Shown here one piece after another: positions 22,049 to 64,000 of a stretch of DNA of 64,000 nt. Below the pieces are notes generated by a model. It worked only from the letters and a program-made list of their open reading frames with translations. It did not search any database and was not told the DNA's origin. Origin of the DNA: Candidatus Poribacteria bacterium (GTDB lineage Bacteria > Poribacteria > WGA-4E > PCPOR2b); assembly GCA_965223985.1 (NCBI GenBank), contig OZ245030.1, forward strand, positions 3,151,720 through 3,215,719, written 5' to 3'. The position numbers were made by a program, and so were the translations under genes. Every line of letters starts with the position of its first letter. Position 1 is the stretch's first letter.

Positions 22049-23995
22049 ATGAATCAAACGAGCCCCATTGAAAACCCCAAGCGAGGCGGTGTCCGCCTTA
22101 GAGTTGTTGTCATCGGTCTAATATTGATGGCGCTCAATGCCTATTGGGTCGCAATCAATGATATCATCGTGGGACCGTTGCACAACTACATGTCGCTGTT
22201 CAGCAACGCGGTCTTTACGCTGTTTGCTCTGATTCTGCTGAACCTGATTGTCAAGAGACTGCTGCCGCGCGCATCGCTCAACAGATCCGACCTGTTCGTT
22301 ATCTATGTCATGGTCGTCACGGTGACAACCGTATCGGGACATCCGAGCATGAGCCATGTGGTCGGAATTCTCGCGCACCCGTACTGGTTCGCCACGCCGG
22401 AGAATGACTGGCGAAATCTGTTCTGGGGATATATCCCCGACTGGTTCACCACCCGCGACACAAACGCGCTCAGCGGTTTTTTCCTCGGCGAGACCTCCTT
22501 CTTCAGCCCGCAGTACGTCATACCTTGGCTGGCGCCGATTCTCTATTGGTCCGCGTTTATGTTCGTGCTCTACTTCGTTCTCATCTGTATCAACGTTATT
22601 CTGAGAAAGCAGTTCACCGAGCACGAACGGCTCACCTACCCTATCACGTGGATGCCCCTAGAGATGGGGCGAGACATCTCCGGCTTCCTGAGGAACAGGT
22701 TAATGTGGGCGGGCTTTGGGATTGCGGCGGGCATCAGTCTGCTGAATGGCTTGCATACCTTATACCCTTTCGTCCCCGCTGTGCCCGTGTGGTGGCAACG
22801 GGTCAGCTTCGTGGAAAAACCGTGGAGCTACGCGGGCGGCGTGCTGGTCTCCTTCCAGCCGTTTGTGATTGGGCTCTCATTTTTCATGCCGTTGGATCTG
22901 GCGTTTTCCGCTTGGTTCTTCTACATGCTACAGCTTCTGATACGGATACTGCTGGGCGCGGGGATGGGTATACGCAACCCGTACTTCGATGAACAGGCAC
23001 AGGGGGGTTGGATCGGGTTGGGGATTCTTGCGCTCTGGGTCGGTCGCCGACATCTCAAGCGCGTGTTCGTCCACACGTTCAGCGGCAAGGGCGGAATTGA
23101 CGACACGAGCGAGCCGATGCGGTATCGGACCGCAATCTTGGGAATTGTCGCAGGGCTGCTGTTCTTGCTTGGGTTTGCGTACAAAGCCGGGCTTGATGCA
23201 TGGGTGCTGATCGTGTTCTTGGCGTTATACTGTGCGATTGCGATCGGGGTGGCAAAACTCAGGGCGAGCTTGGGGGTGTCGATCCATCACATCATCTGGG
23301 TAGACCCGCAACGCACGATGGTGACTGCCTTCGGAACACGCGCCTTCGGAGCGCGGAACCTGACGGTGCTGACCTTTCTTTTTTGGCTGAATCGAGAGTT
23401 GGTCGCGCATCCGATGCCGAACCAGCTCGAAGCCTTCCGAATCGCCGAACAGACGGGTACGAACTATCGAAGAGTGTTGTGGGCGATGCTGATAACGCTA
23501 ATCGTCGGGATACCGGTGACCTTTGTGATATACCTCAGCCTTACGTATCACCACGGAGCCGGTAATTCCGCGTCACACATCGTGGGGATGGGGACGGACT
23601 ACTTCACACGTCGTCTCCAACCGTGGTTGAGCAATCCGCTCGAACCGGATTACCTGACAATGAGCATGATTGGTCTCGGGTTTGGGATAATGACCGTTCT
23701 GCTAGTCATGAAGATGCGGTTTCTGTGGTGGCAATTCCATCCGGTGGGGTACGTCATGGGAATTAGCCCGTCGGAGATGAGTTATATCTGGTGCCCGATG
23801 CTTGTTAGTTGGTTTCTCAAGTTCATCGTCTTACGGTATGGCGGATTGAAGGGGTATCGACGCGCCATACCATTTTTTGCGGGCTTGGTGCTCGGAGATT
23901 ACACGATGGGCTGCATTTGGAGCATCATTAGTGCGACCTTCAACGTCGTCACGTATAACATGGGGTGGCACGGACGTCCTAACATGATTCCCTAA
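22049..23995 (+). CDS. Polytopic membrane protein of unknown function (about 13 TM; paralog 1 of 3)
   Basis: 648 aa, highly hydrophobic, with conserved blocks NAYWVAINDIIVGPLHNYMSLFSNAVFTLF, HPYWFATPENDWRNLFW and ERLTYPITWMPLEM shared with ORFs at 60913 and 63626. Confidence 0.75.
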   Translation: MNQTSPIENPKRGGVRLRVVVIGLILMALNAYWVAINDIIVGPLHNYMSLFSNAVFTLFALILLNLIVKRLLPRASLNRSDLFVIYVMVVTVTTVSGHPSMSHVVGILAHPYWFATPENDWRNLFWGYIPDWFTTRDTNALSGFFLGETSFFSPQYVIPWLAPILYWSAFMFVLYFVLICINVILRKQFTEHERLTYPITWMPLEMGRDISGFLRNRLMWAGFGIAAGISLLNGLHTLYPFVPAVPVWWQRVSFVEKPWSYAGGVLVSFQPFVIGLSFFMPLDLAFSAWFFYMLQLLIRILLGAGMGIRNPYFDEQAQGGWIGLGILALWVGRRHLKRVFVHTFSGKGGIDDTSEPMRYRTAILGIVAGLLFLLGFAYKAGLDAWVLIVFLALYCAIAIGVAKLRASLGVSIHHIIWVDPQRTMVTAFGTRAFGARNLTVLTFLFWLNRELVAHPMPNQLEAFRIAEQTGTNYRRVLWAMLITLIVGIPVTFVIYLSLTYHHGAGNSASHIVGMGTDYFTRRLQPWLSNPLEPDYLTMSMIGLGFGIMTVLLVMKMRFLWWQFHPVGYVMGISPSEMSYIWCPMLVSWFLKFIVLRYGGLKGYRRAIPFFAGLVLGDYTMGCIWSIISATFNVVTYNMGWHGRPNMIP

Positions 23996-24252
23996 CCCCT
24001 TCGCGCCTAGACCCAATTCGCCGCGCAGCACACGAGCGGTGAAACGCGAATGGGCTTGATTCGACGGAGTAGGTGTGTTATGCTGTCTTCTTCTTAAGGT
24101 TTGCTGGGTTTCGCCGTGCGGCTCAACGTAACTGTCATAAATGCCTCCCCTGTTTTGGATACCGTGTAATGCTCGATATGCAGTAGCATTTATACAAAAC
24201 CTTTTAACGGATTTCAACGAAAAACTTGCGTTCGTCCAATGGGTGGTACCCG

Positions 24253-24951
24253 ATGGGGCATAAGCTCTCTATTGTGATTCCCGTTTATAATGAGGTCGGC
24301 ACGCTGGAAGAGATTCTCAGGCAGGTCCAAGCGGTAGAGATTGGGATTGAAAAAGAGATTGTCTTAGTGGACGATTGCTCAACTGATGGAGCGCGTGAGC
24401 TTCTCCAGCGGATTGAAGCGTCCGGCGACGCATCCATCCGTGTCTTCTACCACGACGTGAATCGCGGCAAAGGGGCAGCGCTGCGAACCGGGTTTCAGCA
24501 TGTGGACGGCGATATGACCCTCGTTCAGGATTCCGATCTGGAGTATGATCCGCGTGACTATCCCAAATTGATCGGTCCGATTCTGAGCGGCGCGGCGGAC
24601 GCGGTTTACGGCTCGCGCTTCAAAACGGGACGGGGTGATGCGCTGCTGTCGAGTTACGCCGCCAATCGGTTTCTGACCTCGTTCTCCAATCTGGTCACCG
24701 GCTTGAACCTGACGGATATTGAGACCTGCTATAAGGTGATAAAAACTTCGATTCTGCGGGAGATTCCGCTGCGGTCGGATCGATTCGGATTCGAGCCGGA
24801 GATTACCGCGAAGCTCGCCAAGCGGAAGTGCCGAATCTGCGAGGTGCCGATAACCTATCGCGGACGCGACTACCACGAGGGCAAGAAAGTGGGTTGGAAG
24901 GACGGGCTTGCCGCGATGTGTCATATTGTCCGTTTTCGATTCATGGACTGA
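24253..24951 (+). CDS. Family 2 glycosyltransferase (polyprenyl-phosphate sugar transferase-like)
   Basis: LSIVIPVYNEVGTLEEIL...VLVDDCSTDG...DLEYDP motifs of GT2 (DXD-type). The ORF track starts at a TTG at 24226. Confidence 0.8.
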   Translation: MGHKLSIVIPVYNEVGTLEEILRQVQAVEIGIEKEIVLVDDCSTDGARELLQRIEASGDASIRVFYHDVNRGKGAALRTGFQHVDGDMTLVQDSDLEYDPRDYPKLIGPILSGAADAVYGSRFKTGRGDALLSSYAANRFLTSFSNLVTGLNLTDIETCYKVIKTSILREIPLRSDRFGFEPEITAKLAKRKCRICEVPITYRGRDYHEGKKVGWKDGLAAMCHIVRFRFMD

Positions 24952-25027
24952 TGCGGCGCGGAATATCCCCGCCGCACGGAGTGCGCTAGCTGCTCCGACC
25001 GCTAGCCGGTTGCAATACGGCGTGATT

Positions 25028-26809
<1,782 letters not shown>

Positions 26810-26819
26810 AATAATACCC

Positions 26820-27015
26820 CCATGCCCCCTTGGTAAGGGGGGATGCTAGTAGAGTTTTCCCTCTTGATAAGGGGGAGGCGCTAATGGAGTTCTCCCTCTC
26901 GTTAAGGGTGGAGGAAAATAGGATTCGCGCCTTACTAAGGGGGCGCCGCCCAAATTTCTCCGGCTTTCTAAGGGGCACCCCGCACATTCTTCCTCTTGCC
27001 AAGGGGGAGTTAGAG
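26820..27015. repeat. Tandem array of about six ~35-bp units, each containing a short G/C-clamped hairpin (CCyTC-TTGNTAA-GGGGG)
   Basis: ccccttggtaagggggg (26826), ccctcttgataagggggagg (26859), ccctctcgttaagggtggagg (26894), gccttactaagggggcgcc (26929), ctttctaaggggcaccc (26964), cctcttgccaagggggag (26992). Single copies of the same hairpin occur at 46188-46215 and 34340-34380. Confidence 0.5.
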
Positions 27016-27059
27016 GGAGTCGAATTTTGGCGGCTATTGAAGAAGGGAGGACGTAAACA

Positions 27060-27776: not shown

Positions 27777-27848
27777 CTCAACCCAACCTACGTTGCTGCC
27801 CACCGTTTTTGTGGATGATTTTTCCGGTCTTATGCTACAATTTTGTAT

Positions 27849-28199: not shown

Positions 28200-28422
28200 T
28201 TACCTCATTGAAGAGGAATTGTCAAATCCGAAGGAGGCATTGCTTTATCTCGAAGTCGCGTTTGAAGAATACCTTAAGGATGGTGACGCCACAGCGTTTA
28301 TGTTAGCACTTCGCAACATTGATGAAGCACAAGGCACCAACCTAAGCAACACTTTGAAGCTATCCGCGAAAGAGCCCCGTAAAATTGCGAAGCTGTTTCA
28401 ACGTGCAGCTTCCCCGCTCTAG
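28174..28422 (+). CDS. Type II antitoxin (HigA-like addiction-module antidote protein)
   Basis: ATG at 28174 lies 6 nt after an AAGGAGG RBS and overlaps the toxin's 3' end. LSNPKEALLYLEVAFEEYLKDGDATAFMLALRNIDEAQG matches the antidote family consensus. Confidence 0.6.
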   Translation: MRQFRDYHDYLIEEELSNPKEALLYLEVAFEEYLKDGDATAFMLALRNIDEAQGTNLSNTLKLSAKEPRKIAKLFQRAASPL

Positions 28423-28430
28423 ATCTAGTT

Positions 28431-28505: not shown

Positions 28506-28510
28506 TACGT

Positions 28511-30512: not shown

Positions 30513-30514
30513 CG

Positions 30515-31931: not shown

Positions 31932-32094
31932 TTTAAACGTCCGGGAAACGGACCGGTGAATGCCAACGCTAAGGACGATTGGAACAAGAAAAGCCGAATG
32001 CGCTATTCGGAAATTGGAGCGGAGTATTGTGTTTGGTTATGTGTTTGGTTGCCGGAGGTTTCAAAAGCGTTGGGTTTCGCTATCTCCAGCGAGT

Positions 32095-32300
32095 GTCGCA
32101 CGCAGTAAACCTACAAAGCGATTCGTTATAATGCACATGTTTCGGCATACCCGCTCTACCCAACCTACAAAGACTACAAAGACTACAAAGACTATCGCAG
32201 TCGCTATTCGCTCCTTTGATCCCTACCCAACCTACAAAGACTATCGCACTCACTATTCGTTCGCTTGATCGCTCAGTTGATCTACCCAACCTACGAAAGC
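32095..32300. repeat. REP-like cluster with a tacaaagac microsatellite
   Basis: ctacccaacctacaaagactacaaagactacaaagactatcgcagtcgctattcgctcctttgatccctacccaacctacaaagactatcgcactcactattcgttcgcttgatcgctcagttgatctacccaacctacg. Confidence 0.6.
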
Positions 32301-34339: not shown

Positions 34340-34800
34340 CCATCTTGCTCCCCCCTTTTTTAAGGCGGGACTGAGGGGGTAGTAGCGTGTGTCGCGATTC
34401 GGAGCAAGTTTTTGTAGGTTGGGTAGAGTCAACGGCGAAACCCAACGTTTTTGAAACGTCCGTTCAGCCGACCGGTTAACGGCAACACGAGAACGATGGG
34501 AACGACAAAAAGGAACAAAAGGCAATGACACTATACGGGATTTGTATGATTGTGTGGAAACGCGACGCGTTTTGGTGTTCGGGAGGTTTCAAAAACGTTG
34601 GGTTTCGCTCTGTCGAACAATTCTCGCACACAATTAACGAACAGACCGATTCGTTATAATGCACATGTTTCGGCATACCCACTCTACACCAACCTACAAG
34701 AACTACAAAGACTATCGCCTTCGCTATTCGCTCCTTTGATCCTAACCCAACCTACAAGAACTGTTTGTTTGATGCCTTCAGCGCAATACGATAAGCATTA
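34340..34800. repeat. Hairpin repeat plus MITE-like and REP-like elements
   Basis: gggactgagggggt hairpin relative; then cgaaacccaacgtttttgaaacgtccg...ccgggaggtttcaaaaacgttgggtttcgct inverted termini and ctacaccaacctacaagaactacaaagactatcgccttcgctattcgctcctttgatc. Confidence 0.6.
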
Positions 34801-34856: not shown

Positions 34857-35399
34857 TTATTCTTTGCCGATGTCGGGGTTGATGGGGATTCCTGCGCCTG
34901 TGCTCCAGTTCGCGTCGTATACGCCGGCTTGGACGTAGCGGTGGAAGCTGGAGTGTTCCCAATCCTTTGGGGCGGTAACTAAGCCGTGCTTGACGGGATT
35001 ATAGTGGATGTATTCAACGTGGTTGATATAGTCTTGAGTGTCTTTGACCGTGTGTTCCCAGAATCTGCGTTGCCAGAATGCGCGCTCGTTTTTGGTTTTG
35101 CGCGATGTTGAAGTAGCACGTTCAAATGTGGTTTGGCAGTGACGGGTGAAGTAGCTTTTGATTTGCCGCCATCGGGTTGAGAAGTCGTGGTCGTCGTCGG
35201 GCAGCGTCCAGATGGTGTGGAGGTGGTCGGGTAGCAGGACGAAGGCATCAATCTCGATCGGATGGCGTTCCATCGTGGAGCGGAGCGCTTGGCGTAGGAG
35301 TTTTACGTTTTCCGGTTGGCAGAGAAAAGGTTTGCGGTCATGGGTCACGACCGTGAAGAAGTAGGTTGCGCCATTGATTTTTGCACGGCGGTAGTTCAT
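34857..35399 (-). mobile_element. Intact REP-associated tyrosine transposase (RAYT; IS200/TnpA_REP-like), 180 aa
   Basis: MNYRRAKINGATYFFTVVTHDRKPFL..., the HxH motif LLPDHLHTIW and catalytic Tyr region YINHVEYIHYNPVKHGL. The gene is surrounded by REP sequences. Confidence 0.85.
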
Positions 35400-38860: not shown

Positions 38861-38989
38861 TGTTATGATTTAGGAAAGGAACAACTACCAATTATGGATA
38901 GTTCAACTAAGGCTTGCGAATCTGGCAAGCGAAACAAAATCAAATTCAATCCTTCAACATACAAACATGCAAGGAGGAAACATACAGTC

Positions 38990-49400: not shown

Positions 49401-52400
49401 AAGGTGCGCGTCACCCTCGGCGAGCAGGCTGCGAGGGAACAGGAAACCGAAGCAGACGGTTCGTATCAGGAGACCTTCTTCATGCCGGGCGAAACGGATG
49501 CGAGCGTTTACGACACCGTGGTAATTCAGGCGGTCGACCGCAGCACCGGCGATTCGGCGTTTGAATCCATGCAGTTGGCTTCGCACCACGTGTTGGCGAA
49601 GCGTCTTATGTTTAACGTGATGCTGGTTCCGGACGATGAACCCCCGGTCGCCGTGGCAGCAGTGAGCCAGCGGTTCCTTGACACCGAAGAAGTCTCGACG
49701 TTCGACGCGAGCGGTTCAACCGACAACGTCTTTATTGACACGTACGTATGGGATTACGGAGACGGCACGAGCGGCAGCGGCGCGAAAACGACGCACGCTT
49801 ACGACCGAGCGGGACTGTATGTTGTAACGCTTACGGTTACCGACCTTGCCCGAAACGCGACTACGGTCTCACGCGAAATCTTTGTGAGCACGGTACGGCT
49901 CGGCGGAATTTCAATCAACACCCGGCACGCGCGAGAGGTTCTTGACCAAATCATCGGCTTGGCAATCGCTAAGACCGACCTTGCTCAGCAGATGGGAACG
50001 GAAGCGCTCTTGCAGATGATGCGCGCTAATCCGGCGATTCAAGCGGCTGTGGCTGAAGCGATTGGCGGGGCATTACCGCCCGGCTTAATACCTATGCAGC
50101 TACTCAGGGAAAATCTGCCGCTGATTTTCGAGCAGTACGAAAACATTGACTTGGAAAACTTCGGCAACGCAGTGACCGCACGTGTCGACGCGAGCGGCGG
50201 TATCCTGGGATCAGCAACTCCGGGATTCGGCAGAGTCGTGACCGGCGAGAAGTTGGACCTCTACCTTGCGACACCGCGTGCAGATGTTGGCAGTGTCACG
50301 TTTAGGTTCGACGAAGCTACAACCGATGCGGACGAGGTCATCGACAGTCTGCCGCACACGTTCCAGTTGGAAGAGGAGCAAGCGATTCTACTGCTGCCCT
50401 CATGGCCCGGCGTGCGGGATGGAATGGACGGCGTGTTCTCAACGGTGACGTTGATGTTGGCGTCTGAAGAGTTGCCGTCGGCATACCACAATCTAATTTC
50501 GAGAAATGCCTGGTCATACCGCGAAACGAGCGATTATCAGGCTGCGTCCATGAGTCCAAGGACGATTAACGGAAAGATTGTATGGGATGTCCAAGCGGAC
50601 ATTGAACCCGGAAAGATATATTACTACTATTACGCAGTCGAACTCGCGTATCCCGTCACACTGAATTTGGGCGAGGGTCAGGAGAGCATGGAACTCTCGC
50701 AGTACGCATTGCCAGACCCGCGCAACCTTCAAATTCAGGATCGCGGCATAGCTGAGGCGGTATTCACACCCGAGCTTCAGGAAGCGATTGCACCGCTGCT
50801 GAACCCGATACTTGCGGGCATTATCAGTGGACAAGCTGTTACGTTCGAGGATGTTATCGCGAGCGTGACGCCCGAAGCGTGGGTGAACCTGTTGGGCGCA
50901 GCATTGAATTCAGCAACTCCGCTTCTTGAAGAGATTTCAATGACGATGGATACGCAGATGATTTCCGTGTTCACCGTTCCGCTGGTGAACGAAGCGCAGT
51001 CGCTCTGGCACACGAGTATTGATTTATCAGTGTTCCCGGACGGCGTTCACACAATTGATGCGAACGCGTTTGATTCGCTTGGAATTCAGATAGATAACCG
51101 ACCGGTTTTCGGTAAGACCTTCACGTTGGATCGGACTGCACCAGTTTACGATGTGTCGGCTGCACCGGCTCAGAATTCGTCGATGTATATGCGCGACGAC
51201 GGCGTATTGATTGCGACAGGATTGCCGCCCGCTGGCGAGGGCAGCCCGATGGCGACGCTTCAACTGATGTCAAGCCCGAACGGCGATGTGAGCGATGCGG
51301 CTGAAGGGTTGTACCAGATTATTCGGCACAGCGATGACGCCGTTGAACAAGCGTCACAAACTTGGGTCAACATTTTCGCGAGCGAATTGGCACCGATGTT
51401 CCAAGGGCTAACGCCTGAAGACATCACCGCATTCTTGGTTACGTTCCCGAATCTAGCGACGTTGAACGCGCCTCTGAGTTTGGACGCGCCTGGGATTGAG
51501 ACGTTCCTTCCGGAACAGATGGAGATGTTGATTCGCGGTGCTAACAGCCAGCCCGAACTGATTGTCGGAGAATACGGGCTGCGTTTCATCGCACGGGATT
51601 CCGTATTTAATATGTCAACGGATACCGCGCCGATACGGTTGAACATTGTTCCACCGGATGCGGATACCGCGATGGTTGTGCGGATATCGCTCGGCGATTG
51701 TAACGGCGACGGCGACTCAGACGACCTGTATGAGACAGGCGCTCCTGCGGACATGATTCTGTTCTCGGACACGCCGAATGTGGTGTTGACCGCAGAGATT
51801 ATGAAACAGGTTCACCCGATAACCTCAATCCTGTTCCAGTATAGGATGGGGGATGAAGGCGAATGGATGGATGTCGGTACACTTGACGCAGATATGGTCG
51901 CCGGCGCTGCTGTCGGCTCACAGTATGATGCGGCTTGGAGCATTGACAACTTGGGCGCGATGATTCAGGCAGGTATGCCGGTAATGGTTCGCGCGGTTGT
52001 CACGAATGCACTCTCCATTTCTGATACTGAGGCTGGCGAAGCTGCAATAGCGGTGAAAGACCATCCGTGCCCGATCGAAACTGAAGTTCACGACCTTGCA
52101 CACAGCGTTACCGACCGTAACCCCGACAGCAACGCGCCGCTGGGCGCGATTATGCTTCAGGCAATCACCCGCGAGCTAACCTCACCTCCTTCGATGAGCG
52201 TAGTTTTTGAGGCGCGCCGTATGCAAGGTGAGGAGTGGATGTCAGTCGGCGAAACGGCGATAGCGGATAGCGTTGTCGAAGAGTCTATCACCGATGCACT
52301 TGAAGAGGTGTTGGAGGAGGTTATCGACGGCGAGCAGACCGCAGTGTTAGTTCCGACGCGGCGTGTATGGTCGTTTGAACTTGATAGCACAACACTAGAA

Positions 52401-55400
52401 GACACAATTGCGGTGGGAGACCCCGCTGAACGCGACGTGACGTTGGACGAGAACCCTTACGTGCTTCGTGCAGCCGCAGTTGACGAGAATGGCACACGAT
52501 ACGAATCGGTGGAGGCGCTCTCGCAGAGTTTCTCGGTCGATAACATTGACGATGTACCGCCGCTCACAGGAACGGCGATTCTTCAAGTTGCGGATGCCGC
52601 AGGCGTTATTGAGGCAATCGAGAGCATCTTTACCGTCGGCGGTATCGTTGACGAGAGCGTAGATGCGCCAGTTGCGATGGTGATGTCAATGCCAATTGCG
52701 GATCCGAACACGTACAGTCGGGTCGATTTGCTGATTAACCGCCGCAATGACGACGGCAGCCTGGGAGACTCTGTGGTTGAGACGGCGTTCGAGATGGGTG
52801 AGGAGAATTACACCACCACGGCTGATGTCTCAACGCTAGAGAACGGCGCGTATCTCTTCCAAGCACTGGCAATGGACGAGGTTGGGAATCAAGAGGTACG
52901 AGATCTCGTGTTAGCGATTTCGGTTGATGTTGCGAACTTCATTCCGCCGCCCGATATCGACCTCAATGGTCAGACGGTTGAGGCAGTCACGGAAGCGTAT
53001 CCGGACGGGTTCCCAATCGCTCGGACGTACGAGCTCGCTGTGACTGGCATTGCGCTTAACGCAGGAGACATCGACGTTCTCGTTGATGGGCGTTCCGCGA
53101 ACGAATTGGGCGCACTCACGGTTACTACGGTTGAGGAAGGGGCGTCGAGCACGTTCGGGCTGGCGATTGACACTACGCTGCTTGAGGAGGGCTTGCACGC
53201 ACTGGATCTACAGGTTACGAAACGCAACGGCAGCATCACGTTTGTTCTGGCGCCGCTGTTTGTAGATAACATCGCGCCCGAGTTGGCAGTGGCTTCGCCG
53301 ATAGCGAACGACGAGGTAAGCGCGTTGCCTTCGATTCATGCAGTATATAATGACGGCGCTGGTGCGGGCATTGAGCTCTCGACAGTGTTGATGAGCATGG
53401 TTCGACTGACGCCGCCGGATATGTCGGCGGTCGAGATTGATGTGAGCCAAGTTATGACAGATTTGACCGACCTGGTCCATACCCGCCGCGATATGCTGCC
53501 GGCTGGCGTATATCGGGTGAGCGTAACGGTGTCCGATATCGTAGACAACGTTAGCAACATGTCGGTTGACTTTACGGTCGTTACGACGTTGCCGTCAGTC
53601 TCAATCCTGTCACCGATGCCGGGTCAAATCCTTGACGTATCGTCGCCGTACATCAGCGCGGTTTACACAGGCATAGGCGCAACCATCACATCGTTCACGC
53701 TTGACGGAGCTGAAGTCGATGATGCGACGATGAGCGACAATCGTTTGGAGTATACGCCTGACGCCTTGGCGGATGGCGACCATACGGCAGCGATTGCAAT
53801 CACGGATGACGAAGGCAATACGATGAGCGACACTGTGAAATTCACGGTAAGGACAGCAGATACGACGCCGCCGCTGATAACGGAGGCGAGTCCGCAAGGA
53901 GTTGTGAAATCTGCGTCCGCTACGCTGTCCGTCGCAGCCTCCGATGAAGAATCCGGGATTGGTAGCGTGTCATACGCCATTGATGACGGTGCAGCGGTTG
54001 ACGGAACGACTCGAAACGTTAGCGGTTTGGCTCCAGGAACTCACACCGTTGCTGCGGTTGTGACAAATGGCGCCGGTCTGTCGAGCACGTTCAATTGGAC
54101 GTTCACCGTTGAATTGGATACGACGCCACCTGTGATTTCGACTGTTGCGCCGCAGGGCGTTATCAAAGAAGCCTCTACCACGGTTTCAGCCGCGGTCGGC
54201 GATGAACAATCGAGTGTCACGCGAGTCACCATGTCGGTAGACGGTGCTGCGGCTAGAACCGCGTCACTACGGGATGGGCGTGTAAGCCGCGTGGTGAGCG
54301 GACTTACCCCTGGAACGCACAATATTACCGTTTCTGCGACGAGCGCTGGCGGTACTGCGACGCATACTTGGAGATTTACGGTTGAACTGGATACCACACC
54401 GCCTGTGATTACCCGTGCTAGACCGCAAGGCGTTATCACGTCAACTTCTGTAACAATTGCGGCAGTGGTGACAGATGAGGAATCTAATGTCACAAGTGTT
54501 ACGATTGCCCTTGACGGCGGCAGAGCTACAGACGTGACACCAGCAGCGAACGGCCCGGTGAACCGTAGGGTGACAGACCTGAATCCCGGTCTGCACGGCA
54601 TAGAACTCGTCGCAACAAGCGCTGGCGGCACCGCGACGCATACTTGGACGTTTAATGTTGACTTGGATACGACCCCGCCGGAGGTTTCGAGTACATCTCC
54701 GCACGGCATTGTGCGCGTGGAACAGCCGCAAATCTCTGTGGCAGCGAGCGATGACCGCGGCGGTATCCTTGCAATCGACATCACCCTTAAAGACAGCGAT
54801 GGTAAAGAGCTCAGCGGTCGAACCGCAGCAAGTTCTGACACAACTTCAGCGACCTTTACACCGTCGGGACGCCTGACGGGGGGGACGTACTCAGTTGATG
54901 CCACCGTGAAAGATAGAAGTCAGAATACGGCATCCGCGAGTTGGAGTTTTACCGTCGAGTTCGATACGGTGCCACCCAGCATCACGGTTGTCGCGCCGCA
55001 GGGCGAGTCCCGGATCGGCGAGGAACGCAGACCGATAATTACGGCGAGCTACACTGATAATGCAGCCGGTGTTGACGCGGATTCCGTGGTACTGATGCTT
55101 GACGGAAACCCGGTCGTTCCGACGGCAGTGTCCACGAGTCAGGTAGTTTACACGCCGCCCGCGGACCTCGATTTCGGTCGGCACACCGTTCGGTTGGAGG
55201 TCTCCGACCTCGCAGCGCCGAACGTGAATACGGCGATGCACGAATGGAGTTTCGTCCTTGAGGACGGTAAGGGACCTGTGTTCCGCGGCGTGCTGCGGAA
55301 TTACCCGAATCCGTTCAAGGATAAAACGAGCGTTTCCTTCACCCTTGCACGTGAATCGACAGTATCCATCGAGATTTACGACATCACGGGTCGGCTTGTC

Positions 55401-55571
55401 AGGGTCTTGGCGCAAGACGAGGTTCGAGAAGCCGGTGGTAATGAATTTCCGTGGGATGGGAAGACATCGACAGGCGAGGTGCTGGCTCGCGGCGTTTACT
55501 TCGGTCAGATAATGGTGACTAGCGAACCGACGCCAGAGTTTATTGTGGTGAGAATGGCGCTGTTGCGCTAG
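46470..55571 (+). CDS. Giant secreted repeat protein (3033 aa): Big-1-like, Cna-B/transthyretin-like, PKD and Ig-like repeats, T9SS-type C-terminal sorting domain
   Basis: GGGAGG RBS then GTG at 46470 and signal peptide. Invasin-like Ig repeats (ADGESTAEITVSIESGDG...DNGDGTYTAVYTAP). About 8 repeats of GTV..DG..V.GV.V.V..........TD.NG.Y.VTFF. A PKD domain (FDASGSTDNVFIDTYVWDYGDGTSGSG...YVVTLTVTD). Six ~95-aa Ig-like repeats (DTTPPVI...PQGVI...). C-terminal CTD NYPNPFKDKTSVSFTL...IEIYDITGRLVRVL...WDGKTSTGEVLARGVYFGQI. Confidence 0.85.
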   Translation: MFNIMSKGKLVWFLILVTLASGLMMSVAQSVHAQSVSLFILNGTLTDADGVALVGYTVEAPIAEESTFGSGVSITDEQGNYSIEYNDLSGRVSVGDSIEVIIKDPDGNVVGETSYTVTSADISPRIGRATHDIAIQMSGLTLDLINVQLPADGESTAEITVSIESGDGPVIGDTVTITADMGSVGEVTDNGDGTYTAVYTAPALVINEPATDTITVSSDTTGDSVTAVITLEPVPTDIRVSVEPSAFIAGSGETGAVSITVNRGGNAVVDADISLVVRRADGGADSGAATDVTNNGDGTYSATFTAPNTAGQIDFSATDAVSGASGMASVNVKAGPAAAISVTAAPTSVSSNGRAVITAAVADASGNGVGGLTLSRTAESGTVGEFSEGSTVGSYSAAYTAGTVEAEGGDTVTVSVDDLSGQVTINLTPVPPKAVEILVITGTVNKQDGTGPVSGVNVEVTVGDMTQPPAQTDSNGNYTVTFFTPGGVAAREGESVTVVVTDDAGEERGRDESVLTREELGEGNSADIERNVNTDILARTTSLVVTGSVFREESEVPIDDVFEITVMNTTRGTEMSGMTDENGMYVLTFFGTDVVAETGDEIVVTASREGSEWSSPPHSLSSEDVEAGRAMVNVPTDIKASALALVVTGKVLFDDGTIAVGAGVTVTSINDGRGLEATGETNADGMYSVTFFTGDVVAETGDVIVVTAVHDGDAVGSTERTLSSAEVDAQRAEGVDVVTSIKASTTTLAVTGTAYYEGSMIPVGGGQTVTVVNNMNGMESTGTTEEDGTFVVTLIAIEGVAAETGDTLTITVTSEADGSGSIEHTLSAMQIDAQRAMVDVPTNIKATSSTFVVSGTAYLEDGVSGAPHDLTVKVMNETQGINAEGVTVPGGGYIVTFLETDAAAVKTADELTFDVLVMAADETPVGETSVTLSSADVVAQRIDGIDITTSLRADPTNEFVVYGTVRDPSGNIVGAGVKVRVTLGEQAAREQETEADGSYQETFFMPGETDASVYDTVVIQAVDRSTGDSAFESMQLASHHVLAKRLMFNVMLVPDDEPPVAVAAVSQRFLDTEEVSTFDASGSTDNVFIDTYVWDYGDGTSGSGAKTTHAYDRAGLYVVTLTVTDLARNATTVSREIFVSTVRLGGISINTRHAREVLDQIIGLAIAKTDLAQQMGTEALLQMMRANPAIQAAVAEAIGGALPPGLIPMQLLRENLPLIFEQYENIDLENFGNAVTARVDASGGILGSATPGFGRVVTGEKLDLYLATPRADVGSVTFRFDEATTDADEVIDSLPHTFQLEEEQAILLLPSWPGVRDGMDGVFSTVTLMLASEELPSAYHNLISRNAWSYRETSDYQAASMSPRTINGKIVWDVQADIEPGKIYYYYYAVELAYPVTLNLGEGQESMELSQYALPDPRNLQIQDRGIAEAVFTPELQEAIAPLLNPILAGIISGQAVTFEDVIASVTPEAWVNLLGAALNSATPLLEEISMTMDTQMISVFTVPLVNEAQSLWHTSIDLSVFPDGVHTIDANAFDSLGIQIDNRPVFGKTFTLDRTAPVYDVSAAPAQNSSMYMRDDGVLIATGLPPAGEGSPMATLQLMSSPNGDVSDAAEGLYQIIRHSDDAVEQASQTWVNIFASELAPMFQGLTPEDITAFLVTFPNLATLNAPLSLDAPGIETFLPEQMEMLIRGANSQPELIVGEYGLRFIARDSVFNMSTDTAPIRLNIVPPDADTAMVVRISLGDCNGDGDSDDLYETGAPADMILFSDTPNVVLTAEIMKQVHPITSILFQYRMGDEGEWMDVGTLDADMVAGAAVGSQYDAAWSIDNLGAMIQAGMPVMVRAVVTNALSISDTEAGEAAIAVKDHPCPIETEVHDLAHSVTDRNPDSNAPLGAIMLQAITRELTSPPSMSVVFEARRMQGEEWMSVGETAIADSVVEESITDALEEVLEEVIDGEQTAVLVPTRRVWSFELDSTTLEDTIAVGDPAERDVTLDENPYVLRAAAVDENGTRYESVEALSQSFSVDNIDDVPPLTGTAILQVADAAGVIEAIESIFTVGGIVDESVDAPVAMVMSMPIADPNTYSRVDLLINRRNDDGSLGDSVVETAFEMGEENYTTTADVSTLENGAYLFQALAMDEVGNQEVRDLVLAISVDVANFIPPPDIDLNGQTVEAVTEAYPDGFPIARTYELAVTGIALNAGDIDVLVDGRSANELGALTVTTVEEGASSTFGLAIDTTLLEEGLHALDLQVTKRNGSITFVLAPLFVDNIAPELAVASPIANDEVSALPSIHAVYNDGAGAGIELSTVLMSMVRLTPPDMSAVEIDVSQVMTDLTDLVHTRRDMLPAGVYRVSVTVSDIVDNVSNMSVDFTVVTTLPSVSILSPMPGQILDVSSPYISAVYTGIGATITSFTLDGAEVDDATMSDNRLEYTPDALADGDHTAAIAITDDEGNTMSDTVKFTVRTADTTPPLITEASPQGVVKSASATLSVAASDEESGIGSVSYAIDDGAAVDGTTRNVSGLAPGTHTVAAVVTNGAGLSSTFNWTFTVELDTTPPVISTVAPQGVIKEASTTVSAAVGDEQSSVTRVTMSVDGAAARTASLRDGRVSRVVSGLTPGTHNITVSATSAGGTATHTWRFTVELDTTPPVITRARPQGVITSTSVTIAAVVTDEESNVTSVTIALDGGRATDVTPAANGPVNRRVTDLNPGLHGIELVATSAGGTATHTWTFNVDLDTTPPEVSSTSPHGIVRVEQPQISVAASDDRGGILAIDITLKDSDGKELSGRTAASSDTTSATFTPSGRLTGGTYSVDATVKDRSQNTASASWSFTVEFDTVPPSITVVAPQGESRIGEERRPIITASYTDNAAGVDADSVVLMLDGNPVVPTAVSTSQVVYTPPADLDFGRHTVRLEVSDLAAPNVNTAMHEWSFVLEDGKGPVFRGVLRNYPNPFKDKTSVSFTLARESTVSIEIYDITGRLVRVLAQDEVREAGGNEFPWDGKTSTGEVLARGVYFGQIMVTSEPTPEFIVVRMALLR

Positions 55572-55671: not shown

Positions 55672-56610
55672 ATGTTTCAAGGGAAGCACAAGTTGTTTTA
55701 TAGCGGAGTAGCGTTTATGGCGCTCTTACTCGCCATAGCGCCGATGTGTCTCGCTAGCGGCAACGCCGCCCCATATCTACGCGATGGCGTTGGCGCACGG
55801 TCGATCGGTCTAGGCGGCGCTTTCACAGCCATCGCCGACGATGCAACCTCCACAATCTGGAATCCTGCGGGCTTACCGGCGACTGAGACTCTAGATTTCA
55901 CACTGTCACGGGTGCCTATGGCGTTCGATAGCACAAAGAACTTCATGGCGATCGTAAAAGGGTTAGGCGAGAAAAGCTCGATAGGTTTTTCGTGGATGAA
56001 TGTTGGCGTTGACGATATCATGGAGGTCAGCGCGGACAACGACATCACGGGTAGACGCTTTAACTACGATTCGAATGCGTTGGCGTTATCGTTCGGACAT
56101 GCGCTGGAGAGTTTTAATCTTGGGGCGAGTGTGCGCGTGCTATCCGATGCGGTTGGACTGGATGCCTTCGATGGTGTGACGAGTTTTGGCGGCGTGGATG
56201 TGGGTATGTTGGCGCGACCCGGTACATCGTTGAGCTACGGCTTGGCGGTAAGAAATATCGGCGGTACGGTCGGTGACGAGAGCGTTCCCATAATCGTGGG
56301 TGCTGGCGTTGCGTACCATCTGTTGCAAGGGGACCGTGCGACGGTTGCAGTTGATATCGAGCACGAAATCGGCATTTTGGATGAGAGTCCGACAAGCGTT
56401 CGTATGGGTACGGAATATCGAATTGCGCGAACCTTCGCGGTACGCGGCGGTACACAGGTGTCCAAAGATCGTCAAGCTCTGTTTGTTGGGTTTGGAGTTG
56501 ACGTTGGCGCGCTCCAGCTTGATTATGCGCTAAAAGCGGGCGAACGTGCGACTCGCAGCTTGCAAGACGCCGGCGAAACGCATTATATTTCACTGTCTTA
56601 CGGTTATTAA
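55672..56610 (+). CDS. FadL-family outer-membrane beta-barrel protein, PorV/PorQ-like (T9SS-associated), paralog of the 14949-15905 gene
   Basis: Signal peptide, hatch motif GARSIGLGGAFTAIADDATSTIWNPAGL, beta-strand-rich body ending with an aromatic residue (SLSYGY). Encoded 100 nt downstream of the giant CTD cargo gene. Confidence 0.65.
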   Translation: MFQGKHKLFYSGVAFMALLLAIAPMCLASGNAAPYLRDGVGARSIGLGGAFTAIADDATSTIWNPAGLPATETLDFTLSRVPMAFDSTKNFMAIVKGLGEKSSIGFSWMNVGVDDIMEVSADNDITGRRFNYDSNALALSFGHALESFNLGASVRVLSDAVGLDAFDGVTSFGGVDVGMLARPGTSLSYGLAVRNIGGTVGDESVPIIVGAGVAYHLLQGDRATVAVDIEHEIGILDESPTSVRMGTEYRIARTFAVRGGTQVSKDRQALFVGFGVDVGALQLDYALKAGERATRSLQDAGETHYISLSYGY

Positions 56611-58332: not shown

Positions 58333-58428
58333 ATTGATTGATTTCCGGGGTCGTTTCTGTTACTCTAGTTGGCGAACTTCGAGCGACGTATACGAAATTG
58401 TAAAGGCGATGATGGTGGAATACCTCTC

Positions 58429-59064
58429 ATGCTAGAACGTAAGTTCCGAGGAAAGTTCAGCGCGTTTCTTGCGCTCGTTGCGCGGAAGTTGGTTTCGATC
58501 GGCGTTACGGCGAATATGATGACCTTGATTGGGTTTTGCGTTAATGTGGTTGCGGCAGTGTTTCTGGCGACTGGACGGTTGGTGCTGGCTGGGGTGCTTA
58601 TCCTGTTGGGCGGTATATTCGATATGATGGATGGCGCTGTGGCCCGCGTGGCGCCGAAGTCTAACGCGTCGGGCGCGTTGCTGGATTCGGTCATCGACCG
58701 CTACTCAGAGGGCGCGGTCTTTTTAGGGGCACTCATCTATTTTTATACCCACAGCAATTTATTTGGGGTTATCCTCGTCTTCGCCGCGATGATAGGTTCC
58801 ATCCTCGTGAGTTACGTCCGCGCCCGTGCGGAAGGGCTGCGAATCGAATGCAAGGTCGGATTCATGCAGCGACCTGAGCGGATTGCGCTCTTGGCGTTCG
58901 GTACGCTATTGCAGGGTGTGCTCAGCGTACATTTCGCCGTTGTCCAGTCTACCGCGTTGGTTCTCACCGGTGTTATTGCAATTCTCGCCATTACCTCCCA
59001 CATCACCGCCGTCCATCGGCTCGTTTTCTCTCTTTACGAATTGAGTAATCGTTCGCGCTTGTAG
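58429..59064 (+). CDS. CDP-alcohol phosphatidyltransferase family protein
   Basis: Signature D-G-x2-A-R-x8-G-x3-D-x3-D present as DMMDGAVARVAPKSNASGALLDSVIDRYSE; multiple TM helices. Confidence 0.75.
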   Translation: MLERKFRGKFSAFLALVARKLVSIGVTANMMTLIGFCVNVVAAVFLATGRLVLAGVLILLGGIFDMMDGAVARVAPKSNASGALLDSVIDRYSEGAVFLGALIYFYTHSNLFGVILVFAAMIGSILVSYVRARAEGLRIECKVGFMQRPERIALLAFGTLLQGVLSVHFAVVQSTALVLTGVIAILAITSHITAVHRLVFSLYELSNRSRL

Positions 59065-60900
59065 GTTTGGGCTGAGGGATGAATCCAGGGACTATCGCCT
59101 AACATCCCTATCGAGGTCGCTATCGTGCTCCCTTGATCTATTCGCTACTTTGATCCCTACCCAACCTACAAGTACTATGCACGCATCCCGGGCGGCGGAC
59201 CGAACAATCAGCGGTTGAATGTTTTTGAGATGTCCCGGGAGCCAATCGGCGAACATCAACAACAGAGCGATTGAAACATGAAAAGGCAAGTTTAGGATTT
59301 GGAACCGTGCAATGGTGTCAGAATTTGTTGGGAATGCGGGAGGTTTCAAAAACTACAAAAGCTACCCAACCTACAGTAACTTTATGAATTGAGAAATCGT
59401 TCACGCTTGGACATTGGGTGAAGCGGAGAAAGGAGGGACTATCGCCTTCGTTATTCACTCAGTTGATCCCTACCCAACCTACAAATACAAGAGGAGTGAC
59501 GGTGAAGAAGATAGGTCGAGTTATTGTAGGTTGGGTAGAGCGGATTTGATGTAATACAGGAAGTGTTTTGGAGCGGTCAGTGTGTTGACTTTGTTTGGTA
59601 AATGTTATGATGCAGCGAAACCCAACGTTTTTGAAAGGTCCGGACAGCCAACCGGCTCTAATGAACCCCACCAGCGTGGAAAACAAGAACAAAAGCCAAT
59701 AACAGCGGTTTATTGCGATTGGTATGTATTTGGATTGCGGGAGTGTTTTGTAGTTTTCGTTGAGGGATGAATCCAGGGACTATCGCCTAACATCGGTATG
59801 CAGAACTACAAAGACTATCGCAGTCGCTATTCGCTCCCTTGATCGCTCAGTTGTTCGTTGGCTTAACCCAACCTACACGAACTTTATGAATTGAGAAATC
59901 GTTAGCGCTTGTAGGTTTGGGTTGATGGATGAATCCAGGGACTATCGCCTTCGCTCATTGCTCAGTTGATCGCTCTACCCAACCTACAAGTACTATGCAC
60001 GCATCCCGGACGGCGGACCGAACAATCAGCGGTTGAATGTTTTTGAGATGTCCCGGGAGCCAATCGGCGAACATCAACAACAGAGCGATTGAAACATGAA
60101 AAGGCAAGTTTAGGATTTGGAACCGTGCAATGGTGTCAGAATTTGTTGGGAATGCGGGAGGTTTCAAAAACGTTGGGTTTCGCTCCGTGAACATTGCCAA
60201 GGTCATCGCTCGGAAATTAGGACGGTGTATGGGGACAGGAACGGTTTTGGAATTATCCGCTCTACCCAACCTACAAATACAAGAGGAGTGACGGTGAAGA
60301 AGATTGGTGGAGTTATTGTAGGTTGGGTAGAGCGGATTTGATGTAACACAGGAAGTGTTTTGAAGCGGTCAGTGTGTTGAATTTGTTTGGTAAATGTTAT
60401 GATGCAGCGAAACCCAACGTTTTTGAAAGGTCCGGACAGCCAACCGGCTCTAATGAACCCCACCAGCGTGGAAAACAAGAACAAAAGCCAATAAAAGCGG
60501 TTTATTGCGATTGGTATGTATTTGGATTGCGGGAGGTTGCAAAAGCGTTGGGTTTCGCTCCGCGAACATTGCCAAGGTCATCGCTCGGAAATTAGGACGG
60601 TGTAAGGGGGCAGGAACGGTTTTGGAATTATCCGCTCTACCCAACCTACAAAAGCTACCCAACCTACAGTAACTTTATGAATTGAGTAATTGTTCACGCT
60701 TGGACATTGGGTGAAGCGGAGAAAGCAGGGACTATCGCCTAACATCGGTATGCAGAATTACAAAGACTATCGCAGTCGCTATTCGCTCCCTTGATCCCTC
60801 GCTATTCGCTCAGTTGATCGCTACACAAACTACAAGAACTGCTTAACCCAACCTACAAAAGCTATAAAAGCTAAGTTGATTTTAACCCAAACTATGCAGC
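59065..60900. repeat. REP/MITE-like repeat cluster with a ~870-bp internal duplication, immediately upstream of membrane-protein paralog 2
   Basis: Repeated blocks ggatgaatccagggactatcgcc..., ctacccaacctacaagtactatgcacgcatcccgg...cgggaggtttcaaaaacgttgggtttcgct, gcagcgaaacccaacgtttttgaaaggtccgga...; 59083-59590 and 59950-60460 are near-identical. Confidence 0.7.
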
Positions 60901-60912
60901 GGGGCATTTTTT

Positions 60913-62847
60913 GTGAGTAAGTTTACGCCGACGACAAACAGGAAGCCCAGCGGGATTTCGATACGAACCTTGGCGTTCGGCATGTTCTTTGCTCTGGTTA
61001 ATGCCTATTGGGTATCGACAAACGATTTGCTGATCGGCTTAGTACACAATTACATGTCGCTGTTCAGCAACGCGGTTTTCACGCTGTTCCTGCTAGTTTT
61101 ACTGAATTTTCTTCTCAAGAAGTACGTTCCGACACTTGCGTTCACCGCCTCCGACCTATTGGTCATTTATGTGATGACCGTGATGGTTACGACCTTTTCG
61201 GGGAATCGAATGAATCGATTTGTCGGACTGCTCTCCCATCCCTATTGGTTTGCCACTCCCGAAAATGACTGGCGGAATCTGTTCTGGCGGTATATCCCGG
61301 CGTGGTTTACGGTCAACGACGAGAACGCACTGAGCGCCCTCTATCACGGCGAGACGACGTTTTTCAGCGGTGCGAATTTTTTGCCTTGGCTGCGCCCGAT
61401 ACTCTGCTGGTCGGCGTTTCTGTTTGTGCTGTACGTCGTCCTGCTTTGCATCAATACGGTGATACGTAAGCAATTCACGGAGCATGAGAGACTGACCTAC
61501 CCGATTACTTGGCTACCGCTGGAGATGGCGAAGGATATAACGGTTTTCTTGACGAATAGGCTGATGTGGGTCGGTTTTGGGATTGCTGCGGCGATAGGTC
61601 TTCTGAACGGTTTGAGCGTTTTATATCCGTCCATACCGGATATTCCGGTAGGGTGGACGTCGATTAACTTCCGAGACAAACCGTGGAGCTATATGGGCGG
61701 GACCCGGATTTCGTTCCAGCCGTTTGTGATTGGGCTCTCGTATTTCATGCCGCTAGACCTTGCGTTTTCGGCGTGGTTCTTCTATTTCTTGAAGAAATTC
61801 ACGCAATTGACGCTGGGAGCGACGATGGGCTGGCGTAACCTTTACTTCCCCGAACAGGCTCAAGGCGCATGGAGCGGCTTGGGAATCCTTGCGCTCTGGG
61901 TCGGACGCAGACATCTGAAACGGGTCTTCACACAGGTATTCACGGGTAAGCGGGTAATTGATGACTCGAAAGAACCGATGTCGTATCGGACCGCGATTAT
62001 TGGGATTGCCGCGGGTCTGATTTTTCTCCTTTTTTTCGCTCATAAAGCCGGGCTTTCGCTGTGGATTATTTTGGTGTTTTTTGTCATCTATGTTTGCAGC
62101 GCCATCGGTGTGAACAAGATTAGGGCGGGGCTTGGCGTTGCGGTGCATGAGTTGCTTTGGGTCGACCCCGGCGAGACGATGGTTACTTCAATGGGAACCC
62201 GGATGTTTGGCGCGCGAAACTTGACCGTACTTTCGTTCCTGTTTGTGCTGAATCGCGATCAGCCCGGTCATCCGATGCCGAACCAGCTGGAAGCTTTTCG
62301 GATAGGGGAGCAGGCGAATATTCACGCGAGAAAATTGGCTTGGGCGATGGTTCTGACGTTCGCCATCGGTATACCGGTGACCTTTGTGATATTCTTCAAC
62401 CATCTGTATCAACAAGGGGCTGAAAATTCGGGGACGATTTTCATGCCAATCGGACGGGAAGGGTTTTCGGGGCGGCTGCAGATATGGCTAACGAATCCGA
62501 CGGGGCGTGATTATACGGCGATGGGATTCATGGGGTTTGGTTTCGCCATGACTGGGTTTCTGTTAGTCATGAAGATGCGGTTTCTGTGGTGGCCGTTTCA
62601 CCCCGTCGGTTATGTGCTGGGCTCGAGTCCAGCGGAGATGATATATATTTGGGTGCCGGTGCTCATTAGTTGGTGTCTAAAGTTCGGCATCCTGCGGTAT
62701 GGCGGATTGCGGGCATACCGTACCGCGTTGCCGTTTTTTGTGGGGTTGATATTGGGTGATTATACGTTGGGATGCCTTTGGAGCATTATTGGGGCGGTGT
62801 TCAGGGTTCCGGTGTATAATATGGGTTGGCACCCTGTGACGTCTTGA
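60913..62847 (+). CDS. Polytopic membrane protein of unknown function (paralog 2 of 3; 644 aa)
   Basis: GTG start. Shares blocks NAYWVSTNDLLIGLVHNYMSLFSNAVFTLF, HPYWFATPENDWRNLFW and ERLTYPITWLPLEM and the same length with the 22049 gene. Confidence 0.75.
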   Translation: MSKFTPTTNRKPSGISIRTLAFGMFFALVNAYWVSTNDLLIGLVHNYMSLFSNAVFTLFLLVLLNFLLKKYVPTLAFTASDLLVIYVMTVMVTTFSGNRMNRFVGLLSHPYWFATPENDWRNLFWRYIPAWFTVNDENALSALYHGETTFFSGANFLPWLRPILCWSAFLFVLYVVLLCINTVIRKQFTEHERLTYPITWLPLEMAKDITVFLTNRLMWVGFGIAAAIGLLNGLSVLYPSIPDIPVGWTSINFRDKPWSYMGGTRISFQPFVIGLSYFMPLDLAFSAWFFYFLKKFTQLTLGATMGWRNLYFPEQAQGAWSGLGILALWVGRRHLKRVFTQVFTGKRVIDDSKEPMSYRTAIIGIAAGLIFLLFFAHKAGLSLWIILVFFVIYVCSAIGVNKIRAGLGVAVHELLWVDPGETMVTSMGTRMFGARNLTVLSFLFVLNRDQPGHPMPNQLEAFRIGEQANIHARKLAWAMVLTFAIGIPVTFVIFFNHLYQQGAENSGTIFMPIGREGFSGRLQIWLTNPTGRDYTAMGFMGFGFAMTGFLLVMKMRFLWWPFHPVGYVLGSSPAEMIYIWVPVLISWCLKFGILRYGGLRAYRTALPFFVGLILGDYTLGCLWSIIGAVFRVPVYNMGWHPVTS

Positions 62848-62849
62848 CC

Positions 62850-63620
62850 GTTTTTGTATGTTGGGTTGGGATCGAGCCATCGAAACGAGAAAAGGCAATG
62901 ATATCGTTTAGAATGTGGAACGGAGTGTTGAGTTTGGTATGTATTTGGTTTGACAGAGAAAACTATCGCCTAACATCGGTATGAAGAACCACGAAGACTA
63001 TCGCCTAACATCGGTGTGAATAACTACAAAGACTATCGCCTAACATCGGTATGAGGAACTACAAAGACTATCGCCTCACATCGGTATGAGGAACTACGAA
63101 GACTATCGCCTCACATCGGTGTGAAGAACTACAAAGACTATCGCCTAACATCGGTGTGAGGAACTACAAAGACTATCGCCTAACATCGGTGTGAAGAACT
63201 ACAAAGACTATCGCCTAACATCGGTATGAAGAACTACGAAGACTATCGCCTAACATCGGTATGAGGAACTACAAAGACTATCGCCTCACATCGGTATGAG
63301 GAACTACGAAGACTATCGCCTCACATCGGTGTGAAGAACTACAAAGACTATCGCCTAACATCGGTGTGAGGAACTACAAAGACTATCGCCTAACATCGGT
63401 GTGAAGAACTACAAAGACTATCGCCTCACATCGGTATGAAGAACTACGAAGACTATCGCCTAACATCGGTGTGAAGAACTACGAAGACTATCGCCTAACA
63501 TCGGTGTGAGGAACTACAAAGACTATCGCCTTCGCTATTCGCTCAGTTGATCGCTCAGTTGATCCTAACCCAACCTACAAGACCGTGATCTCAACCCAAC
63601 CTACAAAGACTGCTAGGGAT
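62850..63620. repeat. REP-like cluster containing a 35-bp tandem array (about 16 units, 62950-63530) with higher-order duplication
   Basis: Unit gactatcgcct(a/c)acatcggt(a/g)tga(a/g)gaactac(a/g)aa x about 16 without unique spacers; units 3-8 are re-duplicated as units 9-14. Ends in ...ctatcgccttcgctattcgctcagttgatcgctcagttgatcctaacccaacctacaag. Confidence 0.8.
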
Positions 63621-63625
63621 TACCT

Positions 63626-64000
63626 GTGAATCAATCCACCTCCATCGAAAACGGCAAGTCAAGTGGGATTCCTCTCAGAACCTTGGTCATTGGACTCATT
63701 GTGGTCTTCGTAAATGCCTATTGGGTTTCCGTCAATGAGTTTATAATCGGCCCAATTCACAACTATGTCTCACTGTTCAGTAATGCCGTTTTCACCCTGT
63801 TTGTGCTGGTTCTGCTCAATCTCCTTTTGGAGAAACTACTACCGAAATTGGCGTTGAAGACCGCCGACCTTTTGGTCATCTACGCTATGGTCGTCATGGT
63901 GACGACGGTGGCTGGATACCCAATGAACAGACTGGTCGGAACGCTCGCTCACCCATTCTGGTTCGCCACGGCGGAAAATGACTGGCGGAATTTATTTTGG
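63626..64000 (+). CDS. Polytopic membrane protein of unknown function (paralog 3 of 3), 5' partial at the window edge
   Basis: GTG start; VNQSTSIENGKSSGIPLRTLVIGLIVVFVNAYWVSVNEFIIGPIHNYVSLFSNAVFTLF...HPFWFATAENDWRNLFW is collinear with paralogs 1 and 2; the ORF runs off the end of the window. Confidence 0.6.
   Translation, partial: MNQSTSIENGKSSGIPLRTLVIGLIVVFVNAYWVSVNEFIIGPIHNYVSLFSNAVFTLFVLVLLNLLLEKLLPKLALKTADLLVIYAMVVMVTTVAGYPMNRLVGTLAHPFWFATAENDWRNLFW

Follow-up and report, generated by a model that had tools for sequence, protein, structure and literature searches.

DUF6785/DUF6784 paralogs with a predicted Yellow Stripe 1 fold and the REP arrays around them in a poribacterial locus

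A stretch of 64,000 nt from Candidatus Poribacteria bacterium (GTDB lineage Bacteria; Poribacteria; WGA-4E; PCPOR2b), taken from assembly GCA_965223985.1, contig OZ245030.1, positions 3,151,720-3,215,719 of the forward strand and referred to below as the window, encodes three related polytopic membrane proteins, two of which are preceded by conspicuous repeat arrays. The locus raises the question of what these proteins do and whether the arrays control them. A first-pass annotation could name no family for the proteins, read them as unknown transporters or glycan-processing membrane proteins, and suggested that the arrays may modulate their expression. We consider it probable that the proteins are old paralogs of the DUF6785 plus DUF6784 family that serve as importers with the fold of barley Yellow Stripe 1 (YS1), and that the arrays are accumulations of repetitive extragenic palindromic (REP) elements spread by a REP-associated tyrosine transposase (RAYT).

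Family membership and predicted fold

The three open reading frames (ORFs) lie on the plus strand, as first described: paralog 1 at 22049-23995 (648 amino acids), paralog 2 at 60913-62847 (644 amino acids, from a GTG start) and paralog 3 at 63626-64000, an N-terminal fragment of 125 amino acids that is cut by the window edge. The shared blocks NAYWV..N....G..HNY(M/V)SLFSNAVFTLF and HP(Y/F)WFAT(P/A)ENDWRNLFW are found in the translations, and ERLTYPITW(M/L)PLEM is found in paralogs 1 and 2, with paralog 3 ending before that point. Paralogy is borne out by an identity of 63% between paralogs 1 and 2 across 641 amino acids and of 63-64% between the fragment and either of them. The alignment of paralog 2 with paralog 1 begins at residue 1, which supports the GTG start. 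A tblastn search revealed no fourth copy within the window. Because the paralogs of other genomes are about as close (65-69% identity) as the window neighbors are to one another, the expansion is old, and a recent duplication event is ruled out as the origin of the tandem pair of paralogs 2 and 3.

The proteins do have a family. Searches with profile hidden Markov models (HMMs) match them to Pfam DUF6785 (PF20581) and DUF6784 (PF20580), far above the gathering thresholds of 25 and 26.4 bits, respectively. Paralog 1 scores 492.8 bits for DUF6785 (residues 16-503; E = 1e-147) and 110.6 bits for DUF6784 (residues 540-637; E = 5e-32), paralog 2 scores 484.4 bits (E = 4.5e-145) and 114.7 bits (E = 2.5e-33), and the paralog 3 fragment scores 86.6 bits for DUF6785 (E = 1.8e-24). 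All 45 aligned relatives match DUF6785/DUF6784 over their full length, again far above the gathering scores. NCBI names such relatives “DUF6785 family protein”, and the window paralogs differ from them in nothing. Judged by sequence, the three are plain members of a catalogued family whose function is unassigned. No NCBIfam model matches the window paralogs, and neither DUF6785 nor DUF6784 is mentioned in any paper found in our literature search.

Clustered at 50% identity, the family comprises 5,244 clusters when E<=1e-3 is applied and 1,216 at E<=1e-30. Every named close relative and all of the 80 best genome loci are from Candidatus Poribacteria, in which a contig frequently bears two to four copies, and more distant members occur in Armatimonadota, Chthonomonadales and Abditibacteriota. 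Polar residues conserved throughout the family (R18, N65, E193, Q316, R405, E461, H564 and K591) are candidates for substrate or ion binding; R405, E461 and K591 fall in predicted helices, and E193 and H564 in predicted loops. No internal repeat relating the N-terminal and C-terminal halves was detected with hhalign.

DUF6785/DUF6784 proteins are predicted to have the fold of YS1, a plant iron-chelate/oligopeptide transporter, with the characteristic core domain and scaffold domain both present in the predicted structures. As this predicted fold is common to the paralogs, import of nutrients is their most likely role, and the suggestion of an unknown transporter can be sharpened to a secondary transporter of the YS1/oligopeptide transporter (OPT) fold. 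To our knowledge, the two-domain fold has so far been solved for the barley protein (HvYS1) alone, and its structure reportedly had no structural neighbors at publication. The acidic residues of the HvYS1 proton site (Asp446, Asp490 and Asp494) are located in the core domain.

Identity to HvYS1 (PDB 7WSR/7WST) is just 11-13%, and the results of sequence searches weigh against the assignment. None of the 45 members matches an OPT model (PF03169 or TIGR00728) at E<=10 in Pfam and NCBIfam, and a profile of the family (A1) did not find 7WSR/7WST among PDB sequences. Because the sequence-level searches were negative, the link to OPT proteins comes from predicted structures only. Compared with YS1 and Yellow Stripe-like (YSL) transporters (OPT, TC 2.A.67; PF03169), then, the family has a similar predicted fold but not the sequence profile. 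It also occurs in different phyla (Poribacteria, Armatimonadota and Abditibacteriota), and in its operons it is accompanied by glycoside hydrolases and sugar-acid enzymes, not by peptide or siderophore genes. A search for an OPT gene in 81 homolog loci yielded nothing beyond BCCT, Na/H antiporter and PMT_2 proteins. We describe DUF6785/DUF6784 as a sequence-orphan family with a predicted YS1/OPT fold, and not as a member of PF03169.

Beyond the fold, we infer transport direction, coupling ion, dimer state and substrates. Each paralog would be an inner-membrane secondary transporter built from core and scaffold domains as in barley YS1. By analogy with HvYS1, which is a proton-coupled elevator symporter (PMC9691689), it would import small organic nutrients through an elevator-type mechanism coupled to ions, probably protons. 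Different paralogs would accept different substrates, for which glycan-derived oligosaccharides or sugar acids are the best guess and peptides the alternative. Overall, the family gives the impression of a versatile importer, with substrates that have diverged between paralogs.

Gene context and competing functions

Outside Poribacteria, the genes around DUF6785 suggest a link with carbohydrate catabolism. On three contigs, genes for an IclR regulator, a GH95 fucosidase and a DUF6785 protein follow one another with gaps of 20 bp. Two Abditibacteriota assemblies carry DUF6785 followed by a GH38 mannosidase and an FGGY kinase, beside GH43; elsewhere, DUF6785 follows a KDPG-type (Eda) aldolase and three dehydrogenases, or two tandem DUF6785 genes follow a beta-helix/NPCBM protein, an SDR, an M24 protein, an MR_MLE dehydratase and DUF4432. 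These are operons for the catabolism of glycans and sugar acids. Two other non-poribacterial contexts were uninformative.

Two aspects of the context argue against a sugar-related importer. The carbohydrate link consists of four independent non-poribacterial contexts, given without a background statistic. Moreover, across a synteny set of 79 poribacterial loci, the contexts are heterogeneous and mainly concern housekeeping or envelope functions (PPS_PS, LpxL-like, ABC exporter, KdsB-PyrG, MetH/MTHFR, TrpDC), and they yield no substrate for the three window paralogs. Within this set, the family splits into several syntenic subgroups with unrelated partners. The order LpxL-like acyltransferase, PD40 protein, DUF6785 and MsbA-like ABC exporter is found at 11 loci; SDR, family 2 glycosyltransferase (GT2), dockerin protein, MetH/MTHFR and DUF6785 at seven; and TPR, FGE-sulfatase, FG-GAP/ankyrin and DUF6785 at five. 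Genomes most closely related to that of the window have the order KdsB, PyrG, DUF6785 and SDR. A further subgroup of 14 loci has an overlapping gene of the phosphopantothenate/pantothenate synthetase family (PPS_PS; L014, L017, L018, L020, L021, L023, L024, L026-L029, L033, L038, L052; L001), and for this subgroup a substrate of the pantoate, beta-alanine or pantothenate type is possible. At most of these loci, PPS_PS runs 8-17 bp into the start of DUF6785, at times with a second DUF6785 gene upstream.

The predicted match to an OPT/YSL member would also suit a canonical OPT function, in which the proteins import oligopeptides or metal chelates and the substrates of paralog 1 are peptides freed by the neighboring M23 peptidase. 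The M23 gene (20756-22006, plus strand; PF01551, E = 4.9e-29) ends 42 bp upstream of paralog 1, and the pairing is kept at locus L214, where the M23 gene ends 8 bp before P0001, a 91% ortholog of paralog 1. Some homologs likewise have genes for M24 and M28 peptidases and DPPIV_N/PD40 proteins nearby. However, M23 enzymes are cell-wall endopeptidases and not nutrient-releasing peptidases, the pairing is seen in two close relatives only, no OPT profile matches the family, and its clearest operonic contexts are glycan and sugar-acid operons. We regard a canonical OPT function as doubtful.

Other neighbors could indicate that proteins with this OPT-like fold are exporters or flippases for envelope biogenesis, moving lipid-linked sugars or envelope precursors outward beside glycosyl- and phosphatidyl-transferases. 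The GT2 gene that the first-pass annotation placed after paralog 1 is indeed there, 230 bp downstream (24226-24951, plus strand; PF00535, E = 1.3e-31). It resembles polyprenyl-phosphate sugar transferases, and its best NCBIfam similarities are AglJ and ArnC-like, both under the cut-offs. Together with this ArnC/AglJ-like gene, the M23 peptidoglycan peptidase and a CDP-alcohol phosphatidyltransferase (58369-59064, plus strand; PF01066, E = 2.8e-15) favor an envelope role, as do the LpxL-like acyltransferase and MsbA-like exporter of the 11-locus subgroup, KdsB, a PMT_2 GT-C protein encoded directly upstream of DUF6785 in L013, and PAP2 in L083. Nonetheless, none of the envelope genes accompanies the family consistently, the gene belongs to catabolic operons outside Poribacteria, together with glycoside hydrolases, sugar kinases and an IclR regulator, and the one solved structure with this fold is that of an importer. 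The proteins also show no likeness to known flippase folds (TM-score of 0.09 with WzxE). We consider outward transport unlikely. The first-pass annotation proposed a check for GT-C glycosyltransferases, O-antigen ligases or polymerases (WaaL, Wzy) or MOP flippases, an identity that their polytopic nature, their length of about 645 amino acids and the adjacent GT2 gene would suit. Neither a family HMM match nor the fold of any of these groups was found, which leaves the glycan-processing reading unsupported and the whole proposal effectively refuted.

The REP arrays and their relation to the paralogs

Both intergenic regions 5' of paralogs 2 and 3 are filled with repeats, in agreement with the initial description. 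The region before paralog 2 (59065-60912; 1.85 kb) is a REP mosaic of two ~800-bp segmental duplicates plus short composite units, with unit lengths of 274, 197, 137, 101, 98 and 69 nt, and for 1,727 of its 1,833 array bases the window contains further matching copies. The mosaic includes duplicates of the final ~30 bp of the CDP-alcohol phosphatidyltransferase gene (direct-repeat families D5 and D6). This 3' end and the sequence downstream of it occur at 59032-59100 and are repeated three more times in the array (59384-59447, 59882-59950 and 60677-60740), indicating that the mosaic grew by local segmental duplication. The region before paralog 3 (62848-63625) contains a 35-bp unit repeated 16.3 times (62962-63531; 93% matches, Tandem Repeats Finder (TRF) score 951), followed by a composite unit, GACTATCGCC-TTCGCTATTCGCTCAGTTGATC-...CCCAACCTACAA. 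A composite unit of ~55 bp closes both arrays, ~60-110 bp before each paralog start. This unit and the 35-bp unit are unstructured, linker-type modules, and no secondary structure was found in the 35-bp unit. An interpretation of the 16-copy array as clustered regularly interspaced short palindromic repeats (CRISPR) is ruled out, since its units are arranged head to tail without spacers and Rfam has no match in the window. Rfam also gave nothing relevant in 14 REP-bearing loci.

The repeat modules are not specific to the paralogs, because other intergenic regions carry the same modules: array sequences match about nine other intergenic stretches at 28.4-38.2 kb and none in the first 28 kb. Within this interval lies the gene for a RAYT transposase of 180 amino acids (34857-35399, minus strand), identified by NCBIfam NF047646 (201.6 bits, cut-off 80), by similarity to E. 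coli TnpA_REP (PDB 4er8_A, E = 3.9e-40) and by the IS200-like Pfam domain Y1_Tnp (PF01797, 34.9 bits, cut-off 23). A compact REP unit with a 7-bp stem (34410-34450, minus strand), consisting of a GTAG tag and a short palindrome in the arrangement GTAG-GTTGGGT-loop-ACCCAAC, lies ~410 bp past the 3' end of the RAYT gene. On the other side, one of the matching stretches consists of 2.7 kb of REP arrays (35509-38241; tandem units of 414, 394 and 179 bp by TRF) that stand upstream of an unrelated ORF of 2402 amino acids and have modules in common with the arrays of paralogs 2 and 3. The 64 kb contain 33 copies of the 11-mer core CCCAACCTACA, all located in intergenic DNA or close to it, and 30 copies of GACTATCGC.

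High-copy, extragenic palindromes with GTAG tags are thus found on both sides of an encoded RAYT, and GTAG REPs flanking RAYT genes are the described layout of a REPtron (PMC3733652). The arrays are GTAG-tagged REP clusters, the 34857-35399 region with its flanking REPs is a complete REPtron, and its RAYT is likely the mobilizer of the family. The arrays would represent local accumulations of a genome-wide REP family spread by this transposase. As in REP/REPIN-RAYT systems and the bacterial interspersed mosaic elements (BIMEs) of E. coli, the repeats are high-copy, intergenic, present in both orientations and organized as mosaics with linker motifs, and, like REPINs, doublets in related metagenome contigs fold into long hairpins. 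A single unit forms a weak hairpin (7 bp, z = -1.4) and doublets a strong one (z = -9.2). Unlike typical REP/REPIN elements, the single-unit stem is just 7 bp long, often with a long loop insertion (~75 nt) in this genome. The arrays also differ in their unusual size (1.85 kb and 2.7 kb) and in the inclusion of a non-palindromic 35-bp minisatellite of linker motifs.

Several further observations concern this repeat family. REP modules are absent from positions 1-28000 of the window and dense over 28400-63600, and 28 of the 30 copies of GACTATCGC are on the plus strand, which also has a positive GC skew. Relatives of the RAYT at 61-65% identity occur in cyanobacteria, Anaerolineae, Desulfobacterales and Poribacteria. 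The 19-mer CGCTCTACCCAACCTACAA, a REP arm plus GTAG tag (in the window at 32155, 59972 and 60262, for example), is found exactly in at least 120 metagenome contigs. Among the matches listed (L093-L212), it usually forms REPIN-like doublets beside TGTTGGGTTTCGCT at loci with a GC content of 33-72%, and 7 of 120 loci encode a homolog of the RAYT at 48-54% identity, with the motif no more than ~120 bp away in five of the seven. Given an exact 19-mer alongside transposases of 48-54% identity, the repeat appears to be better conserved than its transposase among these matches. The composite REP pattern had no match in metagenome contigs, and the REP motifs correspond to no relevant paper in the literature searched and no Rfam family.

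The arrays sit immediately 5' of paralogs 2 and 3, and the two end in a common composite unit, an arrangement that might be expected if they modulate these genes as transcriptional insulators, mRNA-stabilizing elements or a length-variable 35-bp expression switch. REP modules are present upstream of one paralog in a related genome (L008), another such genome carries a 114-bp tandem repeat (L007), and effects of REPs on mRNA stability and on termination are reported from other bacteria (PMC3733652), which counts in favor of such modulation. However, upstream gaps at 76 poribacterial homolog loci have a median length of 47 bp and a maximum of 862 bp, and just 2 of 50 REP-core matches fall within the gap. 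In a 90% ortholog of paralog 2, the upstream gap measures 283 bp, lacks these REP elements and lies behind a different gene, and paralog 1 has no array upstream. Array modules also stand between unrelated genes in either orientation, promoter-like and terminator-like sites within the arrays are below shuffle expectation, and the 35-bp unit lacks structure. Given the short median gap and the array-free ortholog in particular, the proposal that the arrays regulate the paralogs is unsupported, and we judge it improbable. The evidence is against a dedicated role and for ordinary selfish REP elements, although the arrays may have an incidental regulatory side effect on the transcription of paralogs 2 and 3.

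Neighboring features and significance

A REP-associated module of ~115 bp is present at 32060-32175, 34590-34700 and 38100-38215. The module has the REP core at its end and carries GATTCGTTATAATGCAC, in which a perfect TATAAT hexamer is found; the 2402-amino-acid ORF begins ~700 bp downstream of one copy. Conceivably, the module acts as a portable promoter. Another family of palindromic intergenic repeats, unrelated to the first (CCCCTCCTTACC..AAGGAGGGG / CCCCCTT..AAGGGGGGAGG), is common to the window (26825-26914) and related Poribacteria (L008, 9190-9450; L213, 1335-1375 and 3605-3713). Two giant ORFs, at 38894-46102 (2402 amino acids, with a 27-bp in-frame tandem repeat at 44309-44450) and 46470-55571 (3033 amino acids), are followed by a gene of the PorV/PorQ outer-membrane family (55672-56610; NF033709, 102 bits), which suggests that they encode type IX secretion cargo.

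For annotation, the lesson is that these conspicuous arrays are REP/RAYT debris and should not be taken for regulatory devices. For the proteins, neither the assignment of a YS1 fold nor the linkage to glycan operons is present in the literature searched, and we know of no carbohydrate or sugar-acid substrates for the YS1/OPT fold. We tentatively raise the possibility that DUF6785/DUF6784 is an unrecognized YS1/OPT branch that provides uptake for glycan and sugar-acid catabolic operons in Armatimonadota and Abditibacteriota and has expanded into multiple paralogs per genome in Poribacteria. If so, the reach of the YS1/OPT fold would extend past peptides and metal chelates. If the fold is shared, a domain of unknown function with more than 5,000 clusters from poorly studied phyla would gain a testable function, and Poribacteria would gain a set of candidate nutrient importers.

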